A stretch of 64,000 nucleotides of DNA from a virus (lineage: Duplodnaviria; Caudoviricetes). How positions within the stretch are numbered: position 1 is the first letter of the stretch; each line of letters begins with the position of its first letter. Positions 13,399 through 53,719 of this stretch are shown here, in pieces. The stretch spans positions 16,927-80,926 of the IMG/VR virus record IMGVR_UViG_3300009158_002556; one strand, written 5' to 3'. Position numbers and translations under genes: made by a program. The notes under the pieces were generated by a model. That model was not told where the DNA came from. It did no database searches and was given only the letters and a program-made list of their open reading frames with translations.

Positions 13399-14130
13399 AT
13401 GACAATACTATACAAAATATGTTTATACGAGGATAGATTGGAAAAACATGGGACGTGTCCTATAGCAAATTCCATTTCTGAATTAACTTTCACATGTCTA
13501 ACTTCACTTTTAACACAAATGACTACGGAAGATGAAATAATTTTCTTTTGTGATGGTGATGATTGTGTGGATAATTTAAAAATATTGTGTAAACGATACA
13601 ACATAAAATATAAACTTTTGACATTTAACTATAAAAGTGCGTCTAAAATTCATTATGAATCGACAACATACTTAAATTTAAACGAAACTCAAGAGCATAT
13701 TTATGTATGTGAAGATGATTATTTACATTTTGATGGATCATTAGTTAAAATTAAAGAATTTTTAAAAAAATATCCAAATTATTTTTGTCATCCAATAGAT
13801 TACCCAAATCTTTATGAATCGGATAATCGATTTGTTTACGAATCACAAATAGTGTTAACTGATACACATCACTGGAGATCTATAAAATCTACTACATATA
13901 CGTTTGCATTTACAAAAACACTATATAATCTACATTATAACACTTTTAAAATAATAAAAGATGATGTGTGGTTAGAACACGGAATTAATTTATTGTATGT
14001 ATTCAACAAATGTTTTAGTCCAATGCCATCATTAACAAGTCACATAACAAATAAATGTCTTCCTTATATAGTAGATACAAAAAAAGTTTATGATGAAAAT
14101 TATAACAAATTTATTCAATCAAACTTTTAA
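13399..14130 (+). CDS. putative GT-A glycosyltransferase
   Basis: IYVCEDDYLH acidic motif; glycan-gene context. Confidence 0.5.
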   Translation: MTILYKICLYEDRLEKHGTCPIANSISELTFTCLTSLLTQMTTEDEIIFFCDGDDCVDNLKILCKRYNIKYKLLTFNYKSASKIHYESTTYLNLNETQEHIYVCEDDYLHFDGSLVKIKEFLKKYPNYFCHPIDYPNLYESDNRFVYESQIVLTDTHHWRSIKSTTYTFAFTKTLYNLHYNTFKIIKDDVWLEHGINLLYVFNKCFSPMPSLTSHITNKCLPYIVDTKKVYDENYNKFIQSNF

Positions 14131-14770
14131 ACCTCTTTAGTGGGATATTACCATCACGATAAGAAAGTTGAGTAAATATAATATCGTTTGGTGTGTATGA
14201 TTTGAACGATTTATCTATATGTGTATAATAATTTATGATAAATTCTATAGAATCATTTATATCATCCATTCTGTTTATTAATTTCTGAAAAATATCTTTG
14301 TTTTTATAAGCAGTCGCGTGTGTAGACCAAGATATACTTATTTCAGAAACATATTCATTTATATAATTTGTTCTCCATCCGTGTGGTAAAAGTTTCGAAC
14401 CACAATAACCTAAATTTATATAACCCCAATCATCAGGGATATTATCCATAAACAATTTTAATTTTTTATCAAAATTTTCTTCAAAACAAATATCATCTTC
14501 AAAAATCAATACATTATTGTAATCGTGAAATAAACAATTTGCAAATATAGAATAATATGCTGATGTTAGACTTATATAAGGTTGAGTATTAATTAATTTA
14601 CCTCCCCAGAAATTTATAGTTTCATAATGAGCACAATATTTTTTATTTGTAGAGAATACAATTTCACAATCTATATTTTTCTCTTTAATAGTTTTTTTAA
14701 TATAATCATATCGATCACTTTTCACGGATGTCGTGATTATGAAAACCTTATTAAAATGATTATGTATCAT
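14111..14770 (-). CDS. GT25-like glycosyltransferase
   Basis: LIFEDDI, INLG and STHATAY motifs. Confidence 0.78.
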   Translation of the reverse strand: MIHNHFNKVFIITTSVKSDRYDYIKKTIKEKNIDCEIVFSTNKKYCAHYETINFWGGKLINTQPYISLTSAYYSIFANCLFHDYNNVLIFEDDICFEENFDKKLKLFMDNIPDDWGYINLGYCGSKLLPHGWRTNYINEYVSEISISWSTHATAYKNKDIFQKLINRMDDINDSIEFIINYYTHIDKSFKSYTPNDIIFTQLSYRDGNIPLKRFKSLIE

Positions 14771-14771
14771 A

Positions 14772-15467
14772 TTAACTTATAAAACTTTTGAAACATTCAT
14801 TTGTTTTATTAAAATTTTTGTCATTGTAATGTTCACTCAATGCACCAACGATTGATTTAGTAGGAGCAAAACATTTATCGCTTACTCTATAATACTTCAT
14901 TATTAATATAGGATCCGGGCCCCAAAATAACATATCAGGTGATTCCATATAATCACAAAAATCTTTTACATTACGTTTAGATACAGCATATGCGTGTGCT
15001 CCATATAAATCTTTTATTTTATTAGAAAACTCATTATATGGTTCAACTTGTGTCTGACTATATGTGTAATTTCTACCTAAATTTAAAACGTCCCAATCGG
15101 TTGGAATGTTATTCATAAACGATTCCAGATTATTTTGATAATTTTCTTCAAAAATAACATCATCTTCAAATATCAACATGTTATCATAATCTGAATATTC
15201 TAATTGACGTAACGCCTGCAAATGAGAAATAGTTGCACTAATTCTATATAAAGATGTATTCATGGGATCTTTAATATTATGTGCATTTATATAATTATAA
15301 TAATGATCTAACAGCGATTCGTGTAAAAACTTTGCATTTACTGCGTGTAAAAAATCAAATTTAATATTTTCTTGAGTAAAATACTTTTTGATATATTCAA
15401 TTCTATTTTTGTGTTCAGATGCGGTAATTACACATATTTTATCAAAGTATTTGTTCAAAACATTCAT
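14772..15467 (-). CDS. GT25-like glycosyltransferase (paralog of the adjacent gene)
   Basis: SHLQAL, LIFEDDV, WDVLNLG and GAHAYAVS motifs. Confidence 0.82.
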   Translation of the reverse strand: MNVLNKYFDKICVITASEHKNRIEYIKKYFTQENIKFDFLHAVNAKFLHESLLDHYYNYINAHNIKDPMNTSLYRISATISHLQALRQLEYSDYDNMLIFEDDVIFEENYQNNLESFMNNIPTDWDVLNLGRNYTYSQTQVEPYNEFSNKIKDLYGAHAYAVSKRNVKDFCDYMESPDMLFWGPDPILIMKYYRVSDKCFAPTKSIVGALSEHYNDKNFNKTNECFKSFIS

Positions 15468-15481
15468 ATCTATACATAGTT

Positions 15482-16384
15482 GTGAAATTTAAAATACTAA
15501 CATACAATAATGGAGTGGGCATAGTAACTGATGCGATTCTATTAAAAGATTTAATTTATAACAACATATCAGAACAAGTAGATGTTAAATTTGTTGGAGA
15601 ACATAGTATAGAAACTGCGGATGTCGGCATATGGATTCAAAATTATAATACAAATCTGTTGAATAATTTTAAGAAAAACATATTTTTTATAAATGAGGAG
15701 TGGGCTGGAATAAATGAATTATCAAATTTACATTTATTTGACTATGTGATATGTAAATCTAAATACGCTAAAGATTTGCTATCTCCATATCATAATGTCA
15801 TACATCTTCCTTTTATATCTAAAGATTACTATGACCCAAATATTGCACGATATAATTCGTACTTACATTTTGCTGGTAGATCAATACAAAAAAACACAGA
15901 ATTAGTATTATCTACATCAAAAAACCTAACTCTTATAGATCCATATAATAGATACAAAGTATGTGAAAATGTAAATCACATTAATGTGTATCAATCTACC
16001 AATCAACTTGTTAATTTACTTAATTCACACAATACACATATATGCTGTAGTTTGTACGAAAGTTGGGGTCATTATTTATATGAAGGACTATCTACAGGTG
16101 CTGAAATAATTTGTAGTGACATACCAGTATTCAGAGAACAATTAGATCCAGATCTCGTACATTTTATTCCTACTACAGAAAGTATTGATTTAAATTACCA
16201 ATACGATGTAGATAATATTAATAAAATTTTTCCTACTAGAAAAAGTTTTTATGTGGATGTAGACGTGTATAATACAATAAATTATTTGAATAAGAAGGGA
16301 TCATCTCAAAAAAGAAGATTTTTATTCAAACATATTGTGGATACTAACTCTAAACGATTAGTTAATTTTTTAAAAAACATATGA
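15482..16384 (+). CDS. GT4-like glycosyltransferase
   Basis: GTG start; HFAGRSIQKNT and ESWGHYLYEGLSTGAEIICSD. Confidence 0.75.
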   Translation: MKFKILTYNNGVGIVTDAILLKDLIYNNISEQVDVKFVGEHSIETADVGIWIQNYNTNLLNNFKKNIFFINEEWAGINELSNLHLFDYVICKSKYAKDLLSPYHNVIHLPFISKDYYDPNIARYNSYLHFAGRSIQKNTELVLSTSKNLTLIDPYNRYKVCENVNHINVYQSTNQLVNLLNSHNTHICCSLYESWGHYLYEGLSTGAEIICSDIPVFREQLDPDLVHFIPTTESIDLNYQYDVDNINKIFPTRKSFYVDVDVYNTINYLNKKGSSQKRRFLFKHIVDTNSKRLVNFLKNI

Positions 16385-16423
16385 TATGTTTAAACGATTG
16401 GAATTATTTTAGTTACAAATAGA

Positions 16424-17434
16424 CTACATATTTAATTTATTTTTAATAAAAGTAGAAGATATATTTTTGGTTCTTTCTATTAAATGTAATTTATCGATGT
16501 GTACTTGATAATACTTGTTAATATAATCTTCATTTTCTCTACCCGCCACAACATAATCCGCACTAATCTTATTAAGAAGATTGTCTGTCACAACTAAGTC
16601 GGCATTTTCATATACATCATCTACGTATTTACACGATTTTACTATTTCAAGTCGATCTTTATATGGTATAGTAGGTTTATTTTTATAAGTCATTACATCT
16701 TCATCATTATGAATGCCAACTATTAACTTACCAAAATTATCTTTGATTCGTTTGAACAAATTTAAATGTCCTATATGAAACATATCAAATACTCCATACG
16801 TATATGCGGTGTATTCGTCTTTTGGTACAACAACATTTTTATCAGGACTATAATTCGGTTTTTCTTCCATAAAATCTACACCATATCTAAATTGCAGATA
16901 TTGATCTAAATGTCTAGGGCATTTAAAATCTAACGTATTAAGTTCAACTGATTCTAATTCATCATAAAAGTGTTTTGGAGTATAAATGTTTGACCATGTA
17001 ATACTCTTTACAAATTTAGAATCGATATACCAAAAGTATATATCCACATGTGTCATTGTAAATTGAGGGTTGTTTTTTGGATATATACAAATATATTCGT
17101 TAGTCGAATGATGTATAATATAATAGTCTTGTGATAATCGTTCACATAACATCTCACTATTAAATTTTTCTTTTTCAAATAATATACTTATATCTAAATC
17201 ACAATCATGATTTATTATTTTTTTATTACGATATGCACCTAATAAAGTACCATAATCTAACCAATATTTTATGTTTAATTCTTGAAGAATATTTGTTACA
17301 CTTTTGAGTTCAATTACATCATATTTTCTATCACAATTGGATGAGATCATATTTTTCTCTTTAATTGTAGTTGCTAAACAAAAATCAGAATCAATTATAT
17401 TAGATTGTTCTTGATGTGATTTAAATTTACTCAT
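16424..17434 (-). CDS. licD: LicD phosphotransferase fused to TagD-like cytidylyltransferase
   Basis: N-half YWLDYGTLLGAYR...HDCDLDI (LicD); C-half GVFDMFHIGHLNL (HxGH) and RTKNISST. Confidence 0.88.
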   Translation of the reverse strand: MSKFKSHQEQSNIIDSDFCLATTIKEKNMISSNCDRKYDVIELKSVTNILQELNIKYWLDYGTLLGAYRNKKIINHDCDLDISILFEKEKFNSEMLCERLSQDYYIIHHSTNEYICIYPKNNPQFTMTHVDIYFWYIDSKFVKSITWSNIYTPKHFYDELESVELNTLDFKCPRHLDQYLQFRYGVDFMEEKPNYSPDKNVVVPKDEYTAYTYGVFDMFHIGHLNLFKRIKDNFGKLIVGIHNDEDVMTYKNKPTIPYKDRLEIVKSCKYVDDVYENADLVVTDNLLNKISADYVVAGRENEDYINKYYQVHIDKLHLIERTKNISSTFIKNKLNM

Positions 17435-18147
17435 ACATTAATTAAATTGTAAGCTTTTATATTTTTGTTATTCGACATTCTTATTGAAGAAAACCCATGC
17501 ATATTCCAGATATCATTCGTATAATTAAATCCAACCTTACCTATCTGATTGGTTCTAGATATAAGAGGAGAGATAACTTCACATTCTTTATAATATGTAT
17601 CTATAACTGCATCAAATGTTATATCCATTCTCCAAAGTTTTAAAAATATATCTTCCCAAAAATTTCGTGTAACACCCAATCCCCATCCTGATAAATAACG
17701 ACATCCATTTAATTTTAATATAACATCGTCGGTCGGAATATTATATATACCATGATCTTTTTCAAATATAAAGTGTTTATTTAGTGTACACAATAAACTA
17801 TCATTCAATAAATTATTTTGCAAACAATACATTGATAACTCATATAAATCTGGAGAACATATAATATCGTCTTCTAATAAAAATGCATAATCAAGTTTAA
17901 GTACTTCAAAACAATAATTGAATGCTACATAATGATTTAATGCTGGTTTAAATCTATAATAATTTCTAAATATAGTTTTGTTCCAATGATCAGGAATCAT
18001 ATCAACCATATTTTCAGAATTTGGTTCAACAAAAAACAAAAAGTTAATTTTATCTAAGTGATTTAGTTTATTAACATGTTGTATATATTGTTTAAAGTAT
18101 TCTACTCGTTCTTTAGAAGAATAACATAAAGGAGTAATAATATTCAT
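17431..18147 (-). CDS. putative GT-A glycosyltransferase
   Basis: FLLEDDI, SGWG and SRTNQIG resemble GT13/GT2-type motifs. Confidence 0.6.
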   Translation of the reverse strand: MNIITPLCYSSKERVEYFKQYIQHVNKLNHLDKINFLFFVEPNSENMVDMIPDHWNKTIFRNYYRFKPALNHYVAFNYCFEVLKLDYAFLLEDDIICSPDLYELSMYCLQNNLLNDSLLCTLNKHFIFEKDHGIYNIPTDDVILKLNGCRYLSGWGLGVTRNFWEDIFLKLWRMDITFDAVIDTYYKECEVISPLISRTNQIGKVGFNYTNDIWNMHGFSSIRMSNNKNIKAYNLINV

Positions 18148-19034
18148 GACATGATTACTGGTACATTTTTAATCGATTCTATAAAATTTGTAACAGGTAA
18201 CTTTATATTAACACAACTGCAATCGTTCAGTCCACTATATATGTTAATATGTTGATTCTCTACTGATACCGACATTGGAAATATAACTTCATATTTTACA
18301 GCATCTTGTAAATCAGTCTTTCTCCATTCCCATAACTTATGCAATAAAGTTTGATCAGTATATTCTTTATTTGATTCAAATATCGGTTCATAATAATAAC
18401 CTATCGGTTCATAATCGTGATTTAATAAAAGTAATCCTATAAAATACTTATATTGTAATTCTCCTGTAGTAATATAGCTGTGAAATAACAAATACTTTTT
18501 TCCAAATATTTCAAATACATTTGTACTTAATCCAGGATTACCATATTTTTCTATCCAAGGTTTCCAATTTAATTGTTTTTTAAATATAATATTTTCATTA
18601 CTATCCATTAATGTATATGGGTTCAGATGATAAATAATACTATCATTTATAAATTGCCAGTGTTTCTCAAAGTGTGCGTTTTGAGTTTTATAGTCAATAA
18701 ATGTTTTTGAATTAATATTATATTTTTTATAATGTACATTTATTACTTTAGTAAGATCAGTCTTATCCAATTTACAAACACATACACCAAATTCATAGTG
18801 GTTAATTAATCTAGCATCCTCATAAGACCAAATATAGTTATCATCTATATAGTGACTTAGTATTATACGATTCGTTGATATATCTATTATATCACTAACT
18901 AATAACTTATTTTCTATCTTCGATTGTCTACGACATATTGTTTTACCTCTATAATGACTTGGATTGAAGTAATTATAGTTGTCATCAAATTGTTTTAAAA
19001 TTTGAACTTCTAAATTTTTTAGGTCAAATATCAT
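18144..19034 (-). CDS. GH130-like five-bladed beta-propeller glycosidase/phosphorylase
   Basis: YFNPS, EDARL, EKHW and VIFPMS...IYSGLND parallel the GH130 motifs EDPR, EKNW and VVFP...YYGAAD. Confidence 0.55.
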   Translation of the reverse strand: MIFDLKNLEVQILKQFDDNYNYFNPSHYRGKTICRRQSKIENKLLVSDIIDISTNRIILSHYIDDNYIWSYEDARLINHYEFGVCVCKLDKTDLTKVINVHYKKYNINSKTFIDYKTQNAHFEKHWQFINDSIIYHLNPYTLMDSNENIIFKKQLNWKPWIEKYGNPGLSTNVFEIFGKKYLLFHSYITTGELQYKYFIGLLLLNHDYEPIGYYYEPIFESNKEYTDQTLLHKLWEWRKTDLQDAVKYEVIFPMSVSVENQHINIYSGLNDCSCVNIKLPVTNFIESIKNVPVIMS

Positions 19035-20164
19035 AAAGAAATACCAGTAATTGTCTTAAAGTTATCTATTAAATAACTAGAAACTGATTCTGATAAACTG
19101 CCATCTGGATAAATTCTACAATTTTCTTCCCAAAACTTTGTGCCTGCATCTGCAATCTTCTTAGCTTCGTCCAAGTTATTGTAGTAATAATTAAGTTTTT
19201 CTTTCAAGTCACTACAATCCAACTTATATTGTACAAAGTGTACATTGGGTGTACCTTCAAACAAATAATCAACCACATTATTTTCATTAATAAATACTAG
19301 GTTATTAAAAGCGAATGATTCGTATTGACGACGAAGTGGTTGACAATTACCTTTAGGTGATAATATAAACTTATGGTTATTTATTTCATTTAAAAATGAA
19401 ACCCGATCTATATGTGGTTTTTTTAAGTCGTTATCTAAAAAACAATCATAAAAATACTTTAAAAATGGAGCTGGATCTGTTCCAGTAACTCTGACATTAT
19501 ACGGAACTCCACTACGTGTTAAATGTAATATTGAATTAAATCTACAATCAATCGCAGGTATGCATCCTGTTATAGCACCTGAAAAATAAAAGAAAGAATC
19601 TTTTTCATCAAATGGTTTTATTTTTTCTTTTAAGATATTAACAAACTCTTCATAATTTTCATTGCTAGCTTCTATATATGTCGGTAACAACATACATTTT
19701 TCTCGTATTACTGGATGATATATTGATTTGTCTTTTTCAATCAAATTATTCATCCAACAATTTACTCTATCATGTAAATCATCATCTATTCTATGATTGA
19801 AAAAATCTGAACCATCGTCATATGATACGACAGAAAATATGTTTTTGAATTTTCTAATATAAGAATTATACTCGCTTTTTAGAGAATAATTTTTATAATT
19901 CAATACATCTGCAAACCAAATATCATAATCATTTATATTTGAAATAATTTTATCATGTGGCACTGAACTAAGTTTTGGTTCATTATCATTTAGAGTCTTA
20001 AAAACTTTAACATTTTTTAAATAATGTTCTCCTTCTATTTGTTCATGTGCTATTTTCTCATCATATAAAACATGAATTGTATGCCCTCTAGATATCAACC
20101 AATTAATTAATGTAACGGATCTTAGAGGTATTCTGGATGATTCAAAACTAAATAATATTTTCAT
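19031..20164 (-). CDS. GT-B glycosyltransferase, GT90/CAP10-like C-terminus
   Basis: FYFSGAITG, HKFILSPKGN and EAKKIADAG. Confidence 0.6.
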   Translation of the reverse strand: MKILFSFESSRIPLRSVTLINWLISRGHTIHVLYDEKIAHEQIEGEHYLKNVKVFKTLNDNEPKLSSVPHDKIISNINDYDIWFADVLNYKNYSLKSEYNSYIRKFKNIFSVVSYDDGSDFFNHRIDDDLHDRVNCWMNNLIEKDKSIYHPVIREKCMLLPTYIEASNENYEEFVNILKEKIKPFDEKDSFFYFSGAITGCIPAIDCRFNSILHLTRSGVPYNVRVTGTDPAPFLKYFYDCFLDNDLKKPHIDRVSFLNEINNHKFILSPKGNCQPLRRQYESFAFNNLVFINENNVVDYLFEGTPNVHFVQYKLDCSDLKEKLNYYYNNLDEAKKIADAGTKFWEENCRIYPDGSLSESVSSYLIDNFKTITGISL

Positions 20165-20166
20165 AG

Positions 20167-21135
20167 TTAATATTTACAACAAATAGAATTACACACATTG
20201 TATACAGGATTTAATTTAAAATCAAAATTATACTTATCTATGAAATTTTTAACAAATTGATACATTCTGAATATATTTTTTAAATCTGTCTGGTCGTGCA
20301 AATTTAAATCCAAATTATCAATTGTACTAAAAACTTCTTTGAATTCTTTTAAAAAGGTTTCGTCATTGTTAATAACACGTTCGATAAATTCAGCACTCGT
20401 ATATACATTATGTTTAATTTTAACATCCAATACTTTTTTGTATATATCTAACTCCATTACATCTTTTATTTGATCACATGTTATTAAATTATGTACTAAT
20501 GGATTCATGAACAAATGCCATACAGGACTCTGTGCCCAGTCATGAAATGATTTGAAATGATTAATTGCATATCCATAATAAGTATATTTTTCATCCATCA
20601 ATTTATATAACTCATGCGCTCCCCAGTTAGATTGAATATATTTGTCTTTTACATTTTTTATGAATCTCTTAGGAGAAAAATAGTGTTTTTTTGTTGTTAA
20701 AAATTCATACAAATCTCTAGATGCTAATGTTTCATAAAATATATCATATGCGTGTTCAGGAGTACCATTCATATGTAAATACCAAGGTAGTAGAACAACA
20801 TTTTTATTATTAAACTCACACTCAGTGACTATACGTTTCATGTTGTCTAGAAACATTTGTGTTGGAGTTTCGTCTCCATCCAACCATAAAACCCAATCAT
20901 TTTCGGGTACATCGGCAATAAGATGTCTTCTAGCACACTCAATATCAAAAAAATCAGGATGGTGTATTACATTAACATCATCCGGTAATATCGCACGCAT
21001 TTCATGATAAAATAATTCTGGTCCAGCATTTAAAACTCCAATTGTATCGAAGTGTCCTTTACATACTGAAATGGTATTATTAATTAAATTGTATCGTCTA
21101 TCAGGTCCAAGTAAAATTCTTAAATGTATTTTCAT
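20167..21135 (-). CDS. GT2-like glycosyltransferase
   Basis: DWVLWLDGDE and GAHE; resembles 35123..35770. Confidence 0.65.
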   Translation of the reverse strand: MKIHLRILLGPDRRYNLINNTISVCKGHFDTIGVLNAGPELFYHEMRAILPDDVNVIHHPDFFDIECARRHLIADVPENDWVLWLDGDETPTQMFLDNMKRIVTECEFNNKNVVLLPWYLHMNGTPEHAYDIFYETLASRDLYEFLTTKKHYFSPKRFIKNVKDKYIQSNWGAHELYKLMDEKYTYYGYAINHFKSFHDWAQSPVWHLFMNPLVHNLITCDQIKDVMELDIYKKVLDVKIKHNVYTSAEFIERVINNDETFLKEFKEVFSTIDNLDLNLHDQTDLKNIFRMYQFVKNFIDKYNFDFKLNPVYNVCNSICCKY

Positions 21136-21578
21136 TTTCTGTTCAAGTAATGTTTGTATAAATCGTGTATATAAAAGTTTCCACTTACACTTTCAATCTT
21201 AGAATAATATAAAGATTTTAATTTTATGTCAAGGTCTAGAGTAATATCTTCGAATCCAATTAGAATAAATCTTTTTTGCCAGCCTGGTTTATTTGTAGCA
21301 TGGTCAATATAGTCTATAATAGAATTTGTATATTCTATCGTTACCCATGAATAATGAAAAATAGTTGGAAATTTATTATCAAACGTCGTTGACAAATCTG
21401 ATGGTGAATTATCATATTGTATAATTTCCCAATTTCTAAATTTTAATAAATCTGTTATTTCATTGGATGATTTCCCTAATTCTAGGAAACACGCATACTC
21501 TAATTTTTTATAAATTTTATTAATTAAAAATTCTTGAATATTCATATTATTTTTTAAAAATTGTAGCATATCGTCCAT
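21132..21578 (-). CDS. hypothetical protein, possible degenerate methyltransferase fold
   Basis: FLELG resembles SAM motif I; true start is probably the second Met (MNIQEF). Confidence 0.4.
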   Translation of the reverse strand: MDDMLQFLKNNMNIQEFLINKIYKKLEYACFLELGKSSNEITDLLKFRNWEIIQYDNSPSDLSTTFDNKFPTIFHYSWVTIEYTNSIIDYIDHATNKPGWQKRFILIGFEDITLDLDIKLKSLYYSKIESVSGNFYIHDLYKHYLNRK

Positions 21579-22146: not shown

Positions 22147-22200
22147 ATAATTCTCTAAATTGTTTTGTTGGTAATGTATTAATATTTATTTCATATTTAA

Positions 22201-46131: not shown

Positions 46132-46918
46132 AATTGGTATCGTTGGTTATGGATATGTAGGAAAAGCATTTCATACATTTTTCAAAGATCATTATGAGGT
46201 TGTAATTCGTGATCCACTTTATCCAAACTCTGTATCCAAGGAAGAAATTAATCAATGTGAATTGGGTGTGGTTTGTGTACCAACCCCATCAAATACTGAT
46301 GGTAGTTGTGATACGAGTATTGTTGAAGAATCTGTATCATGGATGACCAATCCTATCATTCTCATCAAGTCAACTATTGAAATTGGTACAACTCGTAGGT
46401 TGATTGAAAAGTATAATAAGAAGATTGTATTTAGTCCAGAGTTTGCTGGTGAGTCCAAATACTGGACTCCACAGGGTTTTACAACTGATGTTAAACAAAC
46501 CCCATTCTTTATTTTTGGTTCAGATGATAAATCAGTTGGACATAGATTGGTTGACATTTATATGCCAATCACTGGACCAAGCAAAACATATCGTGTCACA
46601 GATAGTATTAGTGCAGAAATCACCAAGTATGTAGAAAACACTTACTTCGCAATGAAGGTTGCGTTTGTAAATGAACTATATGATTTGTGTGAGAAGAGTG
46701 GTACTCATTGGAGTGAAGTACGTGATCTATGGTTGTTAGATCCAAGAACCAACAAGTCTCACACAGCTGTATTTGCTAATGAACGTGGTTTTGGTGGCAA
46801 GTGTTTACCAAAAGATACAAAGGCTATGGTTGGATATGGTGACAAACTTGGTGTGGATCTATCAATCTTGAAGACCGTATTAAAGAGTAACGAACAAATG
46901 GTAAAACAAAATGGCTAA
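46112..46918 (+). CDS. short UDP-glucose/GDP-mannose dehydrogenase family protein
   Basis: GIVGYGYVG, VCVPTP, KSTI, SPEF, KYVEN and GFGGKCLPKD; no C-terminal UDP-binding domain. Confidence 0.88.
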   Translation: MSKSKTKIGIVGYGYVGKAFHTFFKDHYEVVIRDPLYPNSVSKEEINQCELGVVCVPTPSNTDGSCDTSIVEESVSWMTNPIILIKSTIEIGTTRRLIEKYNKKIVFSPEFAGESKYWTPQGFTTDVKQTPFFIFGSDDKSVGHRLVDIYMPITGPSKTYRVTDSISAEITKYVENTYFAMKVAFVNELYDLCEKSGTHWSEVRDLWLLDPRTNKSHTAVFANERGFGGKCLPKDTKAMVGYGDKLGVDLSILKTVLKSNEQMVKQNG

Positions 46919-47672
46919 GAATTGCATATTAATGGTCGCTATTGAGGATGAATTATCCAAACATTCTCATAAAACCTATTTTGAACACACCATCAATAGT
47001 TGGCAATATTATTGTAACAAGCATAATATTGACTTCTACGTAGTTAGGATCAAGAGACCAGACGTTAAGTATAGTGTTTGGCACAAAGAATTTGTATTTG
47101 ATTATGTAGGAGATGATTATGAAAAAATCGGTGTTGTTGACTTTGATACAATGATCAAATGGGATGCTCCTAACATCTTTGATTTATACGACGATGAGTT
47201 TTGTGGTGTGTTAGACAATGTTTCGATTCAGTGGATTGATAAAAGTCTAAAGGCTTTTAGATCTTCATTTGAAGAGTTGTCTGATGTTCCTATGACACTA
47301 TCTCAATATATTAACGGCGGAGTATTATTTTTTCATAAATCACACAAACCATTTTTTGAAAAACTCAAGAACTTTTATTTAACCAACAAAGACAAAATGG
47401 ATAACTGGAGTATTCCAGGTGTTGGTAAGGAACAATCTATCTTGAACTTGTTCTTGGTCAAAGAAGACATCAAAAGAAAAACACTTCCATATTGTTGGAA
47501 TACGGTTGGTATGGTAAAGAAGGGAATGTTATGGCACAATGATAAATTGGATGATAAAACTACCTTTTTGTTTAAGTATGGGTATATTTGGCACTTCACA
47601 GGCATTCCTATTCAAGATAGAAACAATATAATCAATGATGTTTGGAAAAATATAAATCAATTCTACAAATGA
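46911..47672 (+). CDS. GT8/GT34-like glycosyltransferase
   Basis: VDFDT, YINGG, EQSILN and WHFTG. Confidence 0.72.
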   Translation: MAKNCILMVAIEDELSKHSHKTYFEHTINSWQYYCNKHNIDFYVVRIKRPDVKYSVWHKEFVFDYVGDDYEKIGVVDFDTMIKWDAPNIFDLYDDEFCGVLDNVSIQWIDKSLKAFRSSFEELSDVPMTLSQYINGGVLFFHKSHKPFFEKLKNFYLTNKDKMDNWSIPGVGKEQSILNLFLVKEDIKRKTLPYCWNTVGMVKKGMLWHNDKLDDKTTFLFKYGYIWHFTGIPIQDRNNIINDVWKNINQFYK

Positions 47673-48442
47673 AAAATATCATTTTAATACCAGCCGTTGT
47701 TTCTGCTAACAACGAAAAGAAACTTCGTAATACTCCACTGATTAACAAGATTTATGAATATAGCATAAATAGTTGGAAGCATTTTGCTAAAAAATATGAT
47801 TGTCAAGTGGTTGTATTGGATGAACCATTGATGGATACCAATGTTACTAGTTTGGCATGGCAACGTTATTATGCGTTGGACTTGTTGGAACAAAGCAATA
47901 TTAAGTATAATCAAGTATTGATAGTTGATGCTGATACTATTGTACATCCAAATTGTCCTAATTTCTTTGAATTAACCAACAACAAATATACAGGTGTACA
48001 CGATGGTGTTGTATATGAATGGGTCATTCGTAGTACCGAGTGTTATAGCAAATTACTATTTAACGATTATAAATTAGATGTGTGGAAATATATCAATGGT
48101 GGATTTCAAATATTCAATGAATCTCACAAAGGTCATTTAAACTATCTAAAAGAGTTTTATCTTGAAAATCGTGAACATATTTATCAATTAGAATCTACTA
48201 TCAAGCTTGGTACAGATCAAACCCCTATGAATTTCTTACTTCAAATGAACAACGTTGACGTAAATATTCTACCATATGAATATAATATGATGGGTTTGTT
48301 CTTGACGGATGGTTTAACTGATGATTTAATTTTTACAGATTATGGATGGGTTTACCATTTTAATGGTATTCCTGATACTAGTTATGGTACAAAGGTTGAG
48401 TACTATATGAACAAAACCTATAATAAGTTATATAAACCATGA
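47642..48442 (+). CDS. GT8/GT34-like glycosyltransferase (paralog)
   Basis: VDADT, YINGG, DQTPMN and YHFNG; likely start ATG 47669. Confidence 0.72.
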   Translation: MEKYKSILQMKNIILIPAVVSANNEKKLRNTPLINKIYEYSINSWKHFAKKYDCQVVVLDEPLMDTNVTSLAWQRYYALDLLEQSNIKYNQVLIVDADTIVHPNCPNFFELTNNKYTGVHDGVVYEWVIRSTECYSKLLFNDYKLDVWKYINGGFQIFNESHKGHLNYLKEFYLENREHIYQLESTIKLGTDQTPMNFLLQMNNVDVNILPYEYNMMGLFLTDGLTDDLIFTDYGWVYHFNGIPDTSYGTKVEYYMNKTYNKLYKP

Positions 48443-49122
48443 AATATACGATTTGCACCGTTGTTAATGACATATATTGGGATTTTTTATATTATTTTAC
48501 AAAATCGGCTCTTGAAAAGTGTAACGACATGGCCGAACTAATTGTATTATATACCGGTGAAAATTTCAAAGAAGATCCGATTTTCAATAATAACCGAGTT
48601 AAAATTGTCAAATACCATGGATCTATTACTACAAAAAATATATGGGATGAGGGATGGCAAAAAAATATTGATCTTAAAACTCAGTTCTTACGTGACTTAG
48701 CTACTAAGAAGGACAATCCTATATTTTTAATAGACGTTGATTGTTACTTTTTACATGAGTTTATTGATGTCATAGATATGACCAAAGATATAGCTGTTAC
48801 AAAACGTATACATACGTCGCCATATATAGCATCGTTCGTTGGTTTAATTAAACCAAAGGCTTGTTTAGAATTCATTGATGTTTGGAGGCACAACATGAGT
48901 AAGATACCAACTGTACCAAGAGAATCTACGGCTTTGGTTCGTACAATTCCATCAATGAAAGATAAAGTTTTAATACAAGAAATCCCAGAAACAACAATCA
49001 ATTGTATTAATTTTCAGTCAACTCCAACTGAAGCAAGAATTTTACATTTTAAATCACATAAAATTGGAGATGCTATAGAATTAGTAAAGAAAAGACTCGA
49101 AAATCTAAAATCTATTGTATAA
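48439..49122 (+). CDS. putative nucleotide-diphospho-sugar transferase (GT-A)
   Basis: LIDVDC and ILHFK. Confidence 0.55.
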   Translation: MKYTICTVVNDIYWDFLYYFTKSALEKCNDMAELIVLYTGENFKEDPIFNNNRVKIVKYHGSITTKNIWDEGWQKNIDLKTQFLRDLATKKDNPIFLIDVDCYFLHEFIDVIDMTKDIAVTKRIHTSPYIASFVGLIKPKACLEFIDVWRHNMSKIPTVPRESTALVRTIPSMKDKVLIQEIPETTINCINFQSTPTEARILHFKSHKIGDAIELVKKRLENLKSIV

Positions 49123-50441
49123 TGTGTAGTTTTTATTTTAGTAATCAATATCTAGGTAATCTTGAAGAACTCAATAAATTCTTGAAACCAAGAGGTCCAG
49201 ACTATACTAATTTGGTAGAAGTTGATGGTTATACATTGGTTCATAATCTATTGAGTTTGACGGGTGATTTTACTATTCAACCACTAAGTAAGAACAACAT
49301 ACATGTGTTGTTTAATGGAGAAATTTATAACTTCAAAGACTTTGATTCAAACGCAAAGTGTGATAGTGAAGTTATCATAGATCTGTATCAGAAGTATGGC
49401 CCAGAGTTTACCAGTAAATTAGATGGTGAATATGCTATTTTGATCTTGGATTTAAATACCAAACGAATCATTTTCTCAGCGGATACCTTTAGAACCAAAC
49501 CATTATTTTATAGTATTGAAGACAAAGCTATATCTGTTTCTACATATACTACCCCTATCTTGTTATCAAATTTTAAGAAGGCAAATAAGGTAGAAGCCAA
49601 TACAACTTATATTTATGATATTAAATCTGGTCAATTAACTACCAGAACAATTACTAACTTCAATCTTGACCAATACAAAAATAATGTAGATGATTGGATC
49701 TCAAAGTTTGATAGAGCTATTGAAAAAAGAACCAAGTTTTCTGCCGATAAGAAGTTCTTTATAGGACTTAGTAGTGGATATGATAGTGGAATTATAAGTT
49801 GTGCGTTGAATAAAACTAGTATTGACTACAAAGCATATAGCGTTGCTGCATCTGAAAATATTGATATAATCAAACAAAGATTTAATATTATCAAGAATAA
49901 AGAGTTGATTAATCTTAAAAAGTCTGAATTTGATTATCAGTCTGCAAATTTGTTTGGTATTAAATGTGAAGATTTTACCAGTCAGGATTTGGGTATTAAT
50001 ATAAGATCAGATAAAGCGTGTTATGGACTTGCTCATATTTGTACATTAGCTCAACGAGATAGTAGAAAAATATACATATCTGGTCAAGGTGCCGATGAGA
50101 TCATTTCCGACTATGGTATGAACGGCAATAAAATCTATGGTCATAGTACATTCGGTGGTGTGTTTCCATCTGATCTAAGATCCATCTTTCCGTGGAAAAA
50201 TTTCTTCAAAGGTACTCAAGAACTTTATATATCTAAAGAAGAATATGTTGCGGGATCGTTTGGTATAGAATCAAGATATCCATTCTTGGATTTGGACTTG
50301 GTTCAGGAGTATTTAAACTTATCCACCGATGTAAAAAATAAAAAGTATAAGCATGTAATCCACGAATATTTATTGAGAAATAACTTCCCATTTGAACAAA
50401 ACAAAAAAATTGGGTTTCAAGCAAATAAAAATTTACAATAG
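49122..50441 (+). CDS. AsnB-like glutamine amidotransferase
   Basis: N-terminal Cys (MCSF), RGPD, FNGEIYN, LSSGYDS, SGQGADE and RYPFLD. Confidence 0.92.
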   Translation: MCSFYFSNQYLGNLEELNKFLKPRGPDYTNLVEVDGYTLVHNLLSLTGDFTIQPLSKNNIHVLFNGEIYNFKDFDSNAKCDSEVIIDLYQKYGPEFTSKLDGEYAILILDLNTKRIIFSADTFRTKPLFYSIEDKAISVSTYTTPILLSNFKKANKVEANTTYIYDIKSGQLTTRTITNFNLDQYKNNVDDWISKFDRAIEKRTKFSADKKFFIGLSSGYDSGIISCALNKTSIDYKAYSVAASENIDIIKQRFNIIKNKELINLKKSEFDYQSANLFGIKCEDFTSQDLGINIRSDKACYGLAHICTLAQRDSRKIYISGQGADEIISDYGMNGNKIYGHSTFGGVFPSDLRSIFPWKNFFKGTQELYISKEEYVAGSFGIESRYPFLDLDLVQEYLNLSTDVKNKKYKHVIHEYLLRNNFPFEQNKKIGFQANKNLQ

Positions 50442-50443
50442 TT

Positions 50444-51274
50444 ATGTTATTATATAATAATACAATAATCGATATTTTAGATGGCGGTCTAGGTAACAAA
50501 TTCAATGGCTTGTTTCAGGGAATCTATCTACATAAAAAATTAAATAAGAATCTAGTAATTAATAATGTAAGAAATCATTCAAGCGATTTTAATCTAAAAT
50601 TATTATTTGACTTTGATTATGAATATATCGAAAATACTATAACCGAGTTGGATAATAAACTAGATCTTGGTATTCCAATTTATTTGCATAAAAATCATTT
50701 AAACTATAAAAGACGAGTTATAGTAAATAATAATAATTATGTAGACACAACATTTGTATTTTTAACAGATAGTCTCGGTGTGTCGGGTGATATTTTGAAA
50801 GAATGTTATAAGAGTATAAAAATAACACAATCTATACTGGATCAGGTTTCTAACTTTGTTAACCAATATAATATTTCAAAAGAAACTCTAAGTTTACACA
50901 TACGTGGATCTGATAGTCCTGGTAGAGATGAAAATATAAGAACATCGCTTGATTTTATATCAAAAAATAAGGATAAACGATTTTTTATTTGCACCGATGA
51001 AAAAACAATCGAAGATCAGTTGAGAGGCAATCCTAATTTAATATTTTACAACAAAACTAGTTATACAGAAAAGTATGACAAATCGGCCGGTTGGAATGGT
51101 GCTATAGTTGATAATGATAATAGAAAATGGAACTATAATGCAGCACGTAACGAACAATCTATAGTAGAAGCGTTTATTGAGATGTTAATATTATCAAAAA
51201 CTACATGTTGTAGTAATAATCGTAGTACATTTTTAGCTTGGTCTAAAAGATTTGGAGAAAGTGGATTAATATGA
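50444..51274 (+). CDS. NodZ/GT23-like fucosyltransferase-like protein
   Basis: GGLGN, LHIRGSD, FICTD, EMLILS and STF. Confidence 0.7.
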   Translation: MLLYNNTIIDILDGGLGNKFNGLFQGIYLHKKLNKNLVINNVRNHSSDFNLKLLFDFDYEYIENTITELDNKLDLGIPIYLHKNHLNYKRRVIVNNNNYVDTTFVFLTDSLGVSGDILKECYKSIKITQSILDQVSNFVNQYNISKETLSLHIRGSDSPGRDENIRTSLDFISKNKDKRFFICTDEKTIEDQLRGNPNLIFYNKTSYTEKYDKSAGWNGAIVDNDNRKWNYNAARNEQSIVEAFIEMLILSKTTCCSNNRSTFLAWSKRFGESGLI

Positions 51275-51858
51275 ATATAGAAGAATCAAGAAAACTAGAG
51301 CGAGATAAGTATGAATCTATCTACGTAGATAAAGATCAACACTATAGAAAAAGAAATGATTCCAGAGGATATGGTCGAGGACATTTTGGAAAAAACATAA
51401 TCCCACACATTTTGAGCTTAAAACCCACATCAGTTTTAGACATAGGATGTGGGTTTGGATACTTCTGTAATGATGTACAAAAGTCAGGTATTGAAAAAGT
51501 ATATGGCATGGACATTGCTTCTGTAAAAACCGGCAATGTTATCAATAATCCAAACATCCAATTTATAGATGGTGAATCACATCATATTCCTTTTGAAGAT
51601 AACTCTATTGATATAATAACATCATTTGATTGTTTAGAACACTGTTTGGAAAACGATATAGATGTAATTTTTGCAGAAATGAACCGAGTTGTTAAAAATA
51701 GATGTGTGTTTTCTATTGCATATAGACAATCAGGTGAAGATACAAAGGGGGTAATACTTCATATGACAGTTAAACCAGAAAGTTGGTGGATTGAGAAATT
51801 AAATAAACTATTCACCGTAGAGAAATCGGGTAGTTATCTGATATGTATTAAACGATGA
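51271..51858 (+). CDS. SAM methyltransferase (type 11-like)
   Basis: VLDIGCGFG, GMDI, IPFEDNSID and DCLEH. Confidence 0.88.
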   Translation: MNIEESRKLERDKYESIYVDKDQHYRKRNDSRGYGRGHFGKNIIPHILSLKPTSVLDIGCGFGYFCNDVQKSGIEKVYGMDIASVKTGNVINNPNIQFIDGESHHIPFEDNSIDIITSFDCLEHCLENDIDVIFAEMNRVVKNRCVFSIAYRQSGEDTKGVILHMTVKPESWWIEKLNKLFTVEKSGSYLICIKR

Positions 51859-53072
51859 AAATCAGTTTTATTTTACCCAGCAGAAATAATCTAAAATACT
51901 TGAAGTGGTGTTATGACGCAATTCGTTTAAATTTGAGTCACAAAGAACACGAAGTATGCGTTGCTGATGATGCTAGTAGTGATGGAACTTGGGATTGGTG
52001 TCAAGAAATGATTAAATCAGACCCATGTTTCAAAGCTATTCGTAATGATGGTCCAGAACGAAAGGGAATGACTGAATTGTACAACACATTGGTTCAAGAT
52101 GTAGCTACCAATGATGTTGTTATGATTTATCATGCCGACATGTACATTTCAAAGAACGCGGACTTGTTGATTGAAAAACATTTAAAACCACAGACCATTG
52201 TGTGTTTGACCCGTATAGAACCTCCTCTTCATCCCGGTGGACCAGAAAAGATCGTGCAAGACTTTGGTATGGAACCAGAAACCTTCAAACAAGAATCGTT
52301 TAATAAGTGGATGATTGACACAAAATTATCTCGTAAAGAAAAGATTACTGAAGGTGTGTTTGCTCCATGGGCAATTTATAAAGAAGACTTTAATAAGATA
52401 GGTGGTCACGATTTACTATTTGCTCCGACTTCCAAAGAAGATAGTGATATATTCAACAGATTTTTATTGAGTGGATATAAGTTTATTCAGTTGTGGGAAG
52501 CTTGTGTATATCACTTAACTTGCAGAGGAAGTAGATTCAATCCAACCATTACTTCAATTGGAAAAGATAGTGAAGAGTGGCAAAATCAAAATGTCAAGAG
52601 TGCTAGAAACTTCATTCGTAAGTGGGGCCACTTTGTAAAACATAATGACACTATGAAGCCAATCGTTCCAAATAGATATGACGTTGGTTTTGTAGTCATG
52701 AATATTGATGAATATAAACTACTTCTATTAGAACCTTGGTGTGATACCATTTATTCTGATGCACCATATGAACGTTATACGAATGCGGAACAAAAGAATA
52801 CACGAATTGATATTTCCAAGAAACTAAAAAGTCTTGAGGATCAACGTACAAATGATGTGTTGATTGAGTTTGATGCTACAAAATTAACCAATCAATCTTT
52901 TGAGTTTTTCAACGTGATACAATTGATGTTGGAAGATAGTGGACAGATTGGTGTCATGGAATATGACATTTTTAAAATCAAAGTTAATAAGTTAGTTGAT
53001 TATAAAAATAATCTGATTCACACAAATAATGATTGGTATAAAAAGAAACTATTGATTAAAAATGGGTTATGA
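51855..53072 (+). CDS. GT2 glycosyltransferase
   Basis: ISFILPSRN, ADDASSDGT, HADM, GGHD and EDSD. Confidence 0.88.
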   Translation: MKISFILPSRNNLKYLKWCYDAIRLNLSHKEHEVCVADDASSDGTWDWCQEMIKSDPCFKAIRNDGPERKGMTELYNTLVQDVATNDVVMIYHADMYISKNADLLIEKHLKPQTIVCLTRIEPPLHPGGPEKIVQDFGMEPETFKQESFNKWMIDTKLSRKEKITEGVFAPWAIYKEDFNKIGGHDLLFAPTSKEDSDIFNRFLLSGYKFIQLWEACVYHLTCRGSRFNPTITSIGKDSEEWQNQNVKSARNFIRKWGHFVKHNDTMKPIVPNRYDVGFVVMNIDEYKLLLLEPWCDTIYSDAPYERYTNAEQKNTRIDISKKLKSLEDQRTNDVLIEFDATKLTNQSFEFFNVIQLMLEDSGQIGVMEYDIFKIKVNKLVDYKNNLIHTNNDWYKKKLLIKNGL

Positions 53073-53719
53073 TTGGGTCAGATTTTAAAAATAGTTGGTT
53101 GGGTTGGAATAATCTTCCTGAAATAAGAGAAGGTAGGTGTACCGATGGCTGTCTAGAGTATATGTACAATATACTTAAAATTGCTTGTCCAAAAAGTATA
53201 TTAGAAATCGGTTTTAATGGAGGACACTCAGCTTGTTGTTTTTTAAATGCCAGTCCATCCGCAAAAATGTATACATTCGATATATGTAGATGGGGAATAG
53301 AAGAAAAAGCATTGTCTGTTTTAAAAGAACATTTTGATATAAATTTAATAAAAGGCGATTCTATATACAAGGTTCCAGAATTTTTGGAAAAGAACAATTT
53401 ATTATTTGACTTAATTTTTATAGATGGTTGTCATGATTATGATATTGCTTTATTAGACATTAAGAACACCATGAATTTTTTAAATAATGATGGTATTTTA
53501 ATCGTTGATGATCTACATATGGGCGGAGTTTATTCCGCAGTAACCGATTCCGGGATAGATAATATCTATAATTCTAATGTTGTGGAAATAAAAACTAACA
53601 AAACAAATACTTCTACAAAGAAATCTCAATTGTATTGTAGACCCGAATTATTAAACATAAAAAAAAATTTAGAAACTATTGTGAGACCATTTGTAATATT
53701 TAAAAAAGGAAAACTATGA
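53069..53719 (+). CDS. SAM methyltransferase (Methyltransf_24-like)
   Basis: ILEIGFNGGHS, LIFIDGCHDY and IVDD. Confidence 0.88.
   Translation: MIGSDFKNSWLGWNNLPEIREGRCTDGCLEYMYNILKIACPKSILEIGFNGGHSACCFLNASPSAKMYTFDICRWGIEEKALSVLKEHFDINLIKGDSIYKVPEFLEKNNLLFDLIFIDGCHDYDIALLDIKNTMNFLNNDGILIVDDLHMGGVYSAVTDSGIDNIYNSNVVEIKTNKTNTSTKKSQLYCRPELLNIKKNLETIVRPFVIFKKGKL

Follow-up and report, generated by a model that had tools for sequence, protein, structure and literature searches.

Predicted conserved core and variable islands in a large glycan gene cluster of an uncultured T4-type phage

Why a tailed phage should carry about 35 kb of genes for glycan-synthesis enzymes, and to which acceptor the products of these genes attach sugars, are the questions raised by a 64-kb stretch of the IMG/VR record IMGVR_UViG_3300009158_002556 (positions 16,927 to 80,926 of the record; the whole stretch is hereafter called the window). 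An earlier note on this DNA had placed a very large soluble glycan-synthesis system at positions 13399-53719 of the window and proposed that it decorates virion proteins. Results of our analysis indicate that the system is real, large, soluble, and phage-encoded, and that it is a variant within the phage-encoded glycan gene clusters. Its borders have to be redrawn, as replisome genes (23959-31308) and a dUTPase gene (33096) lie inside that range, and further sugar genes are located to the left of it (3650, 4885, and 8202). As to the acceptor, the reading that we tentatively favour is that of a phage-autonomous, cytoplasmic glycan assembly line, which would build on an acceptor supplied by the phage itself, most likely a virion protein.

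The window (G+C content of about 0.31) is a part of the genome of a large uncultured T4-type phage. As indicated by Pfam matches, it encodes a family-B DNA polymerase (PolB; 26111-28771), a clamp-loader ATPase (23959-24912), and a clamp-loader A subunit (55012-55488). Its PolB has an identity of 41% to the polymerase of Microcystis phage Mel-JY01 and of less than 30% to those of T4-like cyanophages. The relatives used for comparison were 34 IMG/VR contigs, in which the identity of PolB ranges from 94% down to 43%. As a proxy for the rest of the genome we used an IMG/VR relative of 303,564 bp (G001; CheckV completeness of 89%, PolB identity of 69%), which carries a gene of the gp23-type major capsid protein and has a G+C content of 0.41, as compared to 0.31 in the window. 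The synteny of the block in the 34 contigs and in the 303-kb relative excludes the misassembly of host DNA that the earlier note had considered, and, judged from this synteny, the block is phage DNA and not host DNA. A T4-type replisome block (23959-31308), which is embedded in the system and lies outside the glycan machinery, is kept in 34 of the 34 relatives, the glycosyltransferase gene 22547 overlaps the clamp-loader gene 23959 by 4 nt, and independent assemblies of many samples, as well as the genomes of two isolates, show identical junctions and an identical order of genes. In the face of these data, the probability that host polysaccharide genes were joined to phage DNA by an assembly error is negligible, although the left part of the block (the left island, see below) has a G+C content of 0.26, which is lower than that of the flanking phage genes (0.33-0.36). 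This low G+C content is a property of the island and no sign of chimerism.

As judged from the conservation of the predicted genes, the block has two layers, a conserved core and hypervariable islands. The core comprises genes of a glycosyltransferase (GT) of the GT-B type that is split into two halves (31575-32126 and 32128-33099), a second GT-B (33778-35121), a GT2 (35123-35770), a GT of GT-A fold (43608-44621), a GT-B-like protein (45154-46131), a GT8-like pair (46911-47672 and 47642-48442), and a hallmark GT2 that closes the cassette (51855-53072), all on the plus strand. The islands span positions 13399-23962 and 35767-51858, and further sugar genes are found at 3650-9560. The genes of the clamp loader, PolB, a cupin-like protein (29634), a nuclease, both halves of the split GT-B, dUTPase, GT-B 33778, and GT2 35123 are present in nearly every relative, and the identities of their products track that of PolB. 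The products of 43608, 45154, a UDP-glucose dehydrogenase (UGDH)-like gene (46112), the GT8-like pair, and 51855 have counterparts of 45-81% identity in G001, and their genes are in the same relative order in marine contigs. The islands behave differently. The distance from gene 12872, which belongs to a lysozyme-bearing run, to the clamp-loader gene amounts to 10.6 kb in the window, as compared to 3.4-7.3 kb in the relatives and about 28 kb in G001. Most relatives lack a 5.3-kb module (35767-41047) and have a methyltransferase gene 5 nt after GT2 gene 35123. Single genes, such as the GT11 gene 41780 (present in L003 and L004, absent from L001 and L002), differ even between phages with 94% identical PolB. 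Variation of this kind between close relatives is expected for an exposed glycan that is under selection.

The cassette can also be recognized in cultured phages. A tblastn search of 50,697 phage records with the products of genes 33778, 51855, and 22547 as queries revealed homologues of 33778 in only two kinds of isolates, namely Flavobacterium phage vB_FspM_immuto (immuto; gp180) and Mel-JY01 (41% identity in both cases). Both encode gp23-type capsids, and common to both is the order of a PD-(D/E)XK nuclease gene, a split or fused GT-B gene, a GT-B gene, and a GT2 gene, followed by methyltransferase and sugar genes. The ordered set from the nuclease to the GT2 is found here as well, with core genes that are 34-56% identical. 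In Mel-JY01, the identities of the core transferases (53, 36, 41, and 34%) are comparable with those of PolB (41%), the clamp loader (39%), and the nuclease (37%). The immuto cassette closes with a GT2 of about 400 aa (gp169) of 45% identity to the 51855 product, and the closing GT2 of Mel-JY01 is a weak match (24%). The cassettes of these two phages are shorter (about 8-11 kb), contain few variable-island genes, and lack the dUTPase insertion and a small membrane protein gene that are present here. Additionally, immuto encodes a family-A polymerase, in contrast to the family-B polymerase of the present phage; in the group to which immuto-like phages belong, the main polymerase has been exchanged between families A, B, and C (PMC11348598). 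In the Mel-JY01 genome (PP395634.1), the product of 80500-81378, which is annotated as a hypothetical protein and the gene of which immediately precedes the nuclease gene and the GT cassette, matches C5-cytosine DNA methylases (E 1.4e-38).

In metagenomes, the hallmark GT2 51855 has more than 7,800 homologues, the best 120 of which are 54-86% identical to it. Among 185,579 GTDB species-representative genomes it was found in only 11 contigs of metagenome-assembled genomes (MAGs), 9 of which carry further genes of the cassette. The MAG contigs with this gene (L055-L065) are labelled Pelagibacter, Nitrosopelagicus, Flavobacteriales, and Melainabacteria, and those bearing the cassette are probably phage contigs that were mis-binned. 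The ESM Atlas clusters of the core families are 93-100% viral. By these sequence neighbourhoods, the core families are essentially phage-only. We found no published description of the cassette.

The C-terminal half of the split GT-B matches Glycos_transf_1 (E 1e-12) and phrog_2170, and both halves match a single fused GT of 481 aa in immuto (L053 10556-11998); the enzyme is split here and in Mel-JY01. The gene of the N-terminal half (31575) is the best conserved gene of the region among relatives, and each comparison showed a higher conservation of this half than of the donor half (56 vs. 42% in immuto, 53 vs. 36% in Mel-JY01). In GT-B enzymes the N-terminal half generally binds the acceptor, and a better conservation of the acceptor half than of the donor half is the reverse of the usual pattern. 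GT-B 33778 is recognized as a glycosyltransferase by phrog_2170 (E 6.5e-10), is 57-94% identical to its counterparts in relatives, and gave no match in a sequence search of the PDB. GT2 35123, a GT-A enzyme (Glycos_transf_2, E 1.9e-14), is 36 and 34% identical to its counterparts in immuto and Mel-JY01, respectively. The product of 43608 has no sequence-family match, and a profile search of the PDB gave no match. Its AF2 model (pLDDT 78) is of GT-A fold, with the top Foldseek matches in the PDB all being GT-A transferases (COLGALT1, RmlT, PcManGT, TarP, and Mnn9; E of about 2e-7); its ESM Atlas neighbours are viral, and it is kept in the marine cassette contigs. The nearest ESM Atlas clusters of 45154, a probable GT-B with a weak profile match to BshA (5d00), are viral and named 'Glycosyl transferase family 1'. 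It is 44-61% identical to its counterparts in G001 and marine contigs, where its gene precedes the hallmark GT2 gene by a few kb at most; here, four extra genes are located between the two. The GT8-like proteins 46911 and 47642 are 30% identical over 218 aa and occur in 1-3 copies per marine cassette contig, and 47642 matches Glyco_transf_8 below the cut-off (E 7e-4). The hallmark GT2 51855 (Glycos_transf_2, E 2.4e-13) has a GT-A fold (AF2 pLDDT 87) and only generic GT2 matches in a sequence search of the PDB. Its resemblance to polypeptide N-acetylgalactosaminyltransferases (ppGalNAc-T) was not used by us, as the fold fails to separate transferases acting on proteins, polysaccharides, and teichoic acids.

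The genes of the block are tightly coupled, as the earlier note had claimed: 26 of the 28 junctions in the plus-strand run (30412-54371) and 8 of the 12 in the minus-strand run are of 5 nt or less, or overlapping. Physically, the block consists of three segments, between which the replisome genes are located. A 79-aa open reading frame (ORF) that appears in the ORF listing at 31336-31575 (plus strand) abuts the start of the split GT-B gene; its product may be a DNA-binding protein of ribbon-helix-helix type and a dedicated regulator of the cassette.

In the reading that assigns the acceptor to the phage, the core enzymes would assemble an invariant core oligosaccharide stepwise from nucleotide sugars, on an acceptor that would most likely be a protein of the T4-type particle. 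The islands would supply unusual donors, such as GDP-6-deoxy- and 3,6-dideoxyhexose (through GDP-mannose 4,6-dehydratase, Gmd, and a ColD-like enzyme), a nucleoside diphosphate (NDP)-sugar or polyol, and possibly a uronic acid. They would also add further transferases (GT25, GT90, GT11, and GT4), O-methylation, amidation, and, by a fusion of LicD and cytidylyltransferase domains, a phospho-alcohol substituent, so that related phages would display differing outer decorations on a common core. The acceptor, the identity of each sugar, and the order of the steps are what we infer from this gene content. A methylated, amidated, and phosphodiester-containing chemistry, as proposed in the earlier note, would be consistent with the enzymes at the level of their families. 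We favour a phage acceptor because the core is phage-only, because it is conserved at the level of the replisome across phages recorded on hosts of different phyla, and because in the split GT-B the conservation of the acceptor half exceeds that of the donor half. All three points fit an acceptor that is invariant and carried by the phage, and the gp23-type virion is what these phages share: the cassette is common to phages with Flavobacterium and Microcystis as the recorded hosts, and the capsids of these phages are all of gp23 type. It is also in line with this reading that searches for a priming GT, a flippase, a polymerase, and an exporter indicated that no lipid-linked route is encoded.

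Several observations weigh against a virion acceptor. No protein-specific initiating transferase was recognized in the block, and the folds of 51855 and 43608 match transferases of polysaccharides, teichoic acids, and proteins equally. The core is located in the replication module, away from the capsid and tail genes, and the islands use the family set of the outer core of lipooligosaccharide (LOS) and lipopolysaccharide (LPS), namely GT25, GT8, GT11, LicD, and a colitose-type sugar, the members of which are also soluble. Promoter motifs provide no guidance on the timing of expression: the T4 late-promoter motif TATAAATA has 15 matches as compared to 18 expected and no useful placement, and a scan of the 28-42 kb region for sigma-70 promoters and terminators scored below shuffled sequences. 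Moreover, the hosts of immuto and Mel-JY01 were taken as written in the records.

The main rival of the phage-acceptor reading is a remodelling of the host envelope, which we consider possible but doubtful. The GTs would in this case extend the lipid A-core of the host (LOS type) or undecaprenyl-linked intermediates of O-antigen or capsule at the inner membrane face, and the product would be exported by the host MsbA, Wzx, or Lpt, serving, e.g., superinfection exclusion or the prevention of re-adsorption of the progeny. The earlier note had argued for a cytoplasmic protein acceptor from the lack of membrane anchors, flippase, Wzy, and priming transferase. The observation itself is borne out. 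In a Kyte-Doolittle scan of all ORFs of the window, no transmembrane segment was found in any GT or methyltransferase, no multi-pass export protein was detected, and the only membrane candidates were the cupin-like protein 29634 and a 125-aa protein (53716-54093, plus strand). None of the window ORFs has a Pfam match to a flippase, Wzy, or a priming polyprenyl-phosphate GT of WbaP/PglC or WecA type. In G001, we found no Bac_transf, Glycos_transf_4, Polysacc_synt (Wzx), Wzy_C (Wzy/ligase), or ABC2_membrane match, and its multi-pass proteins have no match to polysaccharide-export families; in immuto and Mel-JY01, where only Bac_transf and Polysacc_synt were searched for, both families are absent. 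Thus, from among the features of loci for lipid-linked O-antigen or capsule, the clustering of GT and NDP-sugar genes is present here, and a priming GT, a flippase or exporter, and a polymerase or ligase are not. A serotype conversion of gtrABC type is not supported either, as GT2 51855 has no transmembrane segment and there is no polytopic GT.

The argument built on these absences is, however, weak. Bacterial transferases of LPS core, LOS, and O-antigen synthesis of the GT25, GT8, GT11, GT4, and LicD types are soluble or peripheral and act on host lipid acceptors, with export by the host MsbA or Wzx. Because soluble LPS-core transferases rely on the lipid acceptors and export of the host, the absence of such genes from a phage does not discriminate between the acceptors, and the lack of anchors, which the bacterial counterparts lack too, is no argument against host remodelling. 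The set of GT25, GT8-like, GT11, and GT4 enzymes, the LicD-cytidylyltransferase fusion, and the colitose-type pathway is that of a toolkit for the LOS/LPS outer core, and the operon ends with the gene of a conserved small membrane protein (53716). The 22-24 'cell-wall/LPS' genes of cyanophages P-SSM2, S-SCSM1, and S-SCSM2R have been read as serving such remodelling (PMC12801897). What speaks against it is that the core GTs are conserved to the level of the replisome across phages recorded on Bacteroidota and Cyanobacteria, the LPS of which differ, and that cellular genomes are almost devoid of the core families. Furthermore, no cyanomyovirus homologues of GTs 33778, 51855, and 22547, the three that were tested, were found in the 50,697 phage records, and about 35 kb would seem a heavy load for a short lytic cycle. 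The preference of the earlier note for a cytoplasmic phage acceptor over host LPS can be retained tentatively, on the ground of the phage-only core, its replisome-like conservation, and the composition of immuto DNA described below, and not on that of the missing anchors.

The membrane protein 53716, which has three hydrophobic segments and a CPIC motif, is the sole membrane protein of the plus-strand run. Its gene is followed by a coupled ORF for a Cys-containing protein of 93 aa (54090-54371, plus strand), and a 48% identical homologue is encoded at the same position in G001. We considered 53716 as a GtrA-like flippase and rejected this assignment, as neither Pfam nor PHROG gave a match for the protein and both immuto and Mel-JY01 lack a counterpart.

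The location of the core in the replication module, beside the nuclease gene, makes DNA the first acceptor to be excluded. In this explanation, which appears very unlikely to us, the core GTs would glycosylate a modified base, as in the case of T4 glucosyl-hydroxymethylcytosine or of the MT/5mYOX-GT clusters. The core adjoins the PD-(D/E)XK nuclease gene in three of three phage lineages, dUTPase and deoxynucleoside monophosphate (dNMP) kinase genes are nearby, and the C5-cytosine methylase gene of Mel-JY01 adjoins its cassette. Phage DNA glycosyltransferases derived from LPS and teichoic-acid enzymes have been described that add up to trisaccharides (bioRxiv 10.1101/2023.12.21.572611). However, the DNA of immuto, which bears the cassette, was found by liquid chromatography with UV and tandem mass spectrometry (LC-UV-MS/MS) to consist of dA, dC, dT, and fdPreQ1 replacing dG (PMC10516641). 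This nucleoside composition argues against a bulk glycosylation of DNA, although a rare, site-specific modification would escape the published UV trace. In the window there is no Pfam match to a hydroxymethylase, a C5-methylase, or a TET-like enzyme; a search with Tet_JBP gave no match anywhere, the controls included. The thymidylate synthase (ThyA) homologue of G001 keeps the dUMP-type Asn and has a true thymidylate synthase as its best match. Additionally, at least 15 GTs, several sugar pathways, and six enzymes of O-methyltransferase type far exceed what is needed for the known DNA glycans.

An unlikely, though not negligible, explanation is that the block serves another product or several systems: a glycolipid, an oligosaccharide that is free or bound to a lipid, a compatible solute or small-molecule glycoside of the virocell, or independent modules with different targets that are gathered in two insertion hot spots. 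The division of the block into three segments by replisome genes, the islands that come and go independently among relatives, and the 37181-41047 region, which resembles a self-contained pathway for an activated sugar or polyol, would agree with it. The tight coupling of the genes, which extends from the core across the right island as far as the hallmark GT2, is at odds with it, and the order of the core genes, which marine and freshwater contigs have in common, suggests that at least the plus-strand run serves a single pathway.

The comparison with known systems places the phage-acceptor reading among viruses that glycosylate their own particles. Chlorovirus PBCV-1 encodes at least 8 GTs, including A064R with two rhamnosyltransferase domains and a methyltransferase domain, and the capsid glycan of chloroviruses is made by soluble GTs of the virus, together with Gmd and a sugar methyltransferase domain (PMC7019647). 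Likewise, the GTs of the present phage have no signal peptide or anchor, as in chloroviruses and Megavirinae, and are accompanied by the phage's own nucleotide-sugar enzymes, including Gmd, and by methyltransferases of CmcI/FkbM type, which would methylate sugars. These two features of virion glycosylation, anchorless virus-encoded GTs and enzymes that form nucleotide sugars and modify sugars, are both found here, the latter at the family level. The combination of a conserved core with variable decoration is also chlorovirus-like. Unlike the present phage, those viruses are eukaryotic giant viruses of a different capsid lineage. A low-ranked Foldseek match of 43608 to Mimivirus R699 is the only relationship to giant-virus systems that we noted. 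The mycobacteriophages resemble the present phage in being tailed phages that encode their own GTs, and their glycans are located on capsid and tail-tube subunits, as cited in a further study (PMC12619734). Here, however, at least 15 GTs and several sugar pathways are encoded, with the core located among the replication genes of a T4-type phage. The mycobacteriophages of Freeman et al. 2023 are reportedly siphoviruses of Actinobacteria with few GTs, placed with the structural genes. GT 22547 has only weak C-terminal matches (25-28%) to GTs of Streptomyces phages. The glycosylation systems of mycobacteriophages and giant viruses are functional analogues of the present one and not its relatives.

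Many GTs and NDP-sugar enzymes are likewise encoded by the cyanomyoviruses P-SSM2, S-SCSM1, and S-SCSM2R, which are also of T4 type. The 13 GTs of S-SCSM2R, among 22 such genes, have been described as perhaps unsurpassed among marine phages (PMC12801897), and the GT count here is equal or higher. Because no homologue of the three GTs tested was found in them, the present cassette appears separate from their clusters. The alpha- and beta-GT of T4 and the GTs of the MT/5mYOX clusters share with the present enzymes solubility, a relationship to LPS and teichoic-acid enzymes, and the vicinity of replication genes. The present system differs from them in that no base-activating enzyme was found by Pfam in the window, that its GTs are in excess of those needed for mono- to trisaccharides, and that the major nucleosides of the cassette-bearing immuto are unglycosylated.

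The earlier note had counted about 20 GT-like ORFs, which we regard as only an upper estimate. When a GT is called firm if it has a Pfam match at or above the cut-off or a PHROG glycosyltransferase match, and probable if it has a sub-cut-off match, a fold, an embedding, or a paralogy that speaks for it, the 13.4-54.4 kb region contains 10 firm and about 6 probable GTs. The firm ones are two GT25, three GT1/GT4, one GT90, two GT2, and one GT11 enzyme by Pfam, and 33778 by PHROG; the probable ones are 43608, 45154, 13399, 17431, 47642, and 46911. Weak hints concern 42610 and 20167. In the left island, a weak GT2-like ORF (13399-14130, plus strand; Glycos_transf_2 E 0.007, below the cut-off) has a 79% homologue in the related contig L017. 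It is followed by a tandem of GT25 genes on the minus strand (14111-14770 and 14772-15467; Glyco_transf_25 E 5.5e-9 and 1.8e-15), which are paralogues of 33% identity, and by a GT1/GT4-type gene on the plus strand (15482-16384; Glycos_transf_1 E 5.4e-6, at the cut-off; 47% identity to G001). The remaining GT genes of this island are on the minus strand. They encode a weak GT-A-like protein (17431-18147; GNT-I E 0.002 and GT25 E 0.004, both below the cut-off) with a weak similarity to GT25 14772, a GT90-family protein (19031-20164; Glyco_transf_90 E 3.5e-7), and a GT1/GT4 (22547-23962; Glycos_transf_1 E 5.5e-11) that is encoded directly downstream of the clamp loader and is 59-94% identical in many relatives. 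A paralogue of the latter, a GT-B of GT1/GT4 type (8202-9560, minus strand; Glycos_transf_1 E 4.6e-6; 32% identity over 406 aa), is encoded at the downstream end of the lysozyme-bearing minus-strand run, outside the range given in the earlier note. In the right island, the GT11 fucosyltransferase-family gene (41780-42610, plus strand; Pfam E 5.5e-6) is followed by an ORF (42610-43608, plus strand) with a very weak GT47 hint (Exostosin_GT47 E 0.11) and 38-94% homologues in relatives.

Seven methyltransferases had been counted, of which six S-adenosylmethionine-dependent ones are firm by Pfam and the seventh (21547-22146, minus strand; Methyltransf_24 E 0.004, below the cut-off) is weak. The firm ones, all on the plus strand, are a methyltransferase inside the replisome block (29022-29648), an FkbM methyltransferase (35767), two proteins of the Methyltransf_24 family (41112-41783, E 1.1e-13, and 44618-45184, E 6e-6), one of Methyltransf_11 (51271-51858, E 1.8e-17), and a Methyltransf_24/O-methyltransferase (53069-53719, E 3.3e-13).

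The amidotransferase, LicD, and NDP-sugar enzymes that the earlier note had listed are all matched by Pfam. The ColD-like protein (3650-4783, minus strand; DegT_DnrJ_EryC1 E 5e-53), a predicted pyridoxal phosphate-dependent GDP-4-keto-6-deoxymannose 3-dehydratase, has ColD/WbdK (2gms, E 3e-47) as its best PDB match, with a His aligned to the catalytic His188 of ColD. Together with Gmd (4885-6015, plus strand; GDP_Man_Dehyd E 1.6e-102; 71% identity to G001), it points to a colitose-type 3,6-dideoxyhexose branch; a ColC-type reductase was not seen among the annotated genes of the window. The LicD/FKRP-like phosphotransferase and cytidylyltransferase fusion (16424-17434, minus strand; LicD E 2e-8, CTP_transf_like E 2.6e-23) would make a CDP-alcohol and transfer the phospho-alcohol. 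Its PDB matches are ethanolamine-phosphate cytidylyltransferase (3elb, E 2.6e-25), CCT, TagD, and FKRP (6kaj, E 2e-6), and its cytidylyltransferase domain is nearest to ethanolamine-phosphate, choline-phosphate, and glycerol-phosphate cytidylyltransferases. The UDP-glucose/GDP-mannose dehydrogenase-like protein of 268 aa (46112-46918, plus strand) matches the central (UDPG_MGDP_dh, E 1e-23) and N-terminal (E 4e-10) domains and has no Pfam match to the C-terminal nucleotide-sugar-binding domain. Because the same short form, 81% identical, is encoded by G001, it is probably functional rather than truncated. An AsnB-type glutamine amidotransferase (49122-50441, plus strand; GATase_7 E 1.6e-16, Asn_synthase E 1.8e-10) is flanked by hypothetical ORFs 48439 and 50444 (both on the plus strand), and homologues of 48439, 49122, 50444, and 51271 are absent from G001 (four of four).

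The 5.3-kb insertion 35767-41047, the genes of which are on the plus strand, contains, besides the FkbM methyltransferase gene, genes of a DUF7796 protein (36395), a cupin and NTP-transferase fusion (37181; the NTP-transferase domain resembles LicC 1jyk), a shikimate dehydrogenase-like protein (39078), and a HAD phosphatase (40682), all recognized by Pfam, as well as a hypothetical ORF (39721). In the left island, the minus strand also carries an ORF (18144-19034) with 50-65% homologues in relatives and G001 and without a Pfam or PHROG match, two ORFs to which no function was assigned (20167-21135, which has a 47-aa stretch in common with GT2 35123, and 21132-21578), and a small conserved ORF (22201-22563) that precedes the GT gene 22547.

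In the replisome block, two conserved ORFs accompany the clamp-loader and PolB genes. The gene of the cupin-like protein with an N-terminal hydrophobic anchor (29634-30371, minus strand) lies between those of PolB and the PD-(D/E)XK nuclease (30412-31308, plus strand; Pfam); the protein is found in nearly all relatives at 27-92% identity and is absent from immuto and Mel-JY01. The dUTPase gene (33096-33776, plus strand; dUTPase E 2e-12, phrog_135 E 1.9e-28) is a lineage-specific insertion into the cassette, as it is not found at that position in immuto and Mel-JY01. The lysozyme-bearing minus-strand run encodes a 487-aa protein with a C-terminal phage lysozyme domain (9933-11396; Pfam), and dNMP kinase and UvdE endonuclease are also encoded in the window, as indicated by Pfam. 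At 6025-7512 (plus strand), next to the Gmd gene, a NifU/IscU-type scaffold gene contains an intein that bears an HNH endonuclease (Pfam). Farther to the right, a gene on the minus strand (57459-58637) matches DruA, a Druantia defence protein (E 6.5e-22). In the 59322-62471 region (minus strand), a MoxR-type AAA ATPase gene (61497-62471) closely precedes an ORF of 713 aa that is on the same strand and has no family match, and a PAS-domain protein is encoded at the window edge (63652-63999, minus strand).

The occurrence of the cassette in phages of fresh and marine waters allows us to propose, with more caution than the phage-acceptor reading itself, that a broad aquatic clade of phages with T4-type capsids, infecting hosts of several phyla, possesses a phage-only cassette of about seven conserved GTs, which would form in the cytoplasm a core glycan on virion proteins, decorated by way of the variable islands with methylated, deoxy, amidated, and phospho-substituted sugars, and would be a counterpart of the chlorovirus and mimivirus systems. 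If this is true, the present phage would be among its most elaborate examples. The hallmark GT2 51855 family provides a marker for surveys of this system, and the availability of immuto in culture on Flavobacterium sp. LMO8 makes the question of the acceptor directly testable. If the host surface is remodelled instead, the block would rank among the largest investments in host takeover that are known from phages. If it is the virions that are coated, self-made complex glycans would be common in abundant aquatic phages, beyond giant eukaryotic viruses and a few mycobacteriophages, which would bear on the stability of phage particles, their losses to grazing and adsorption, host range, and antigenic diversification.

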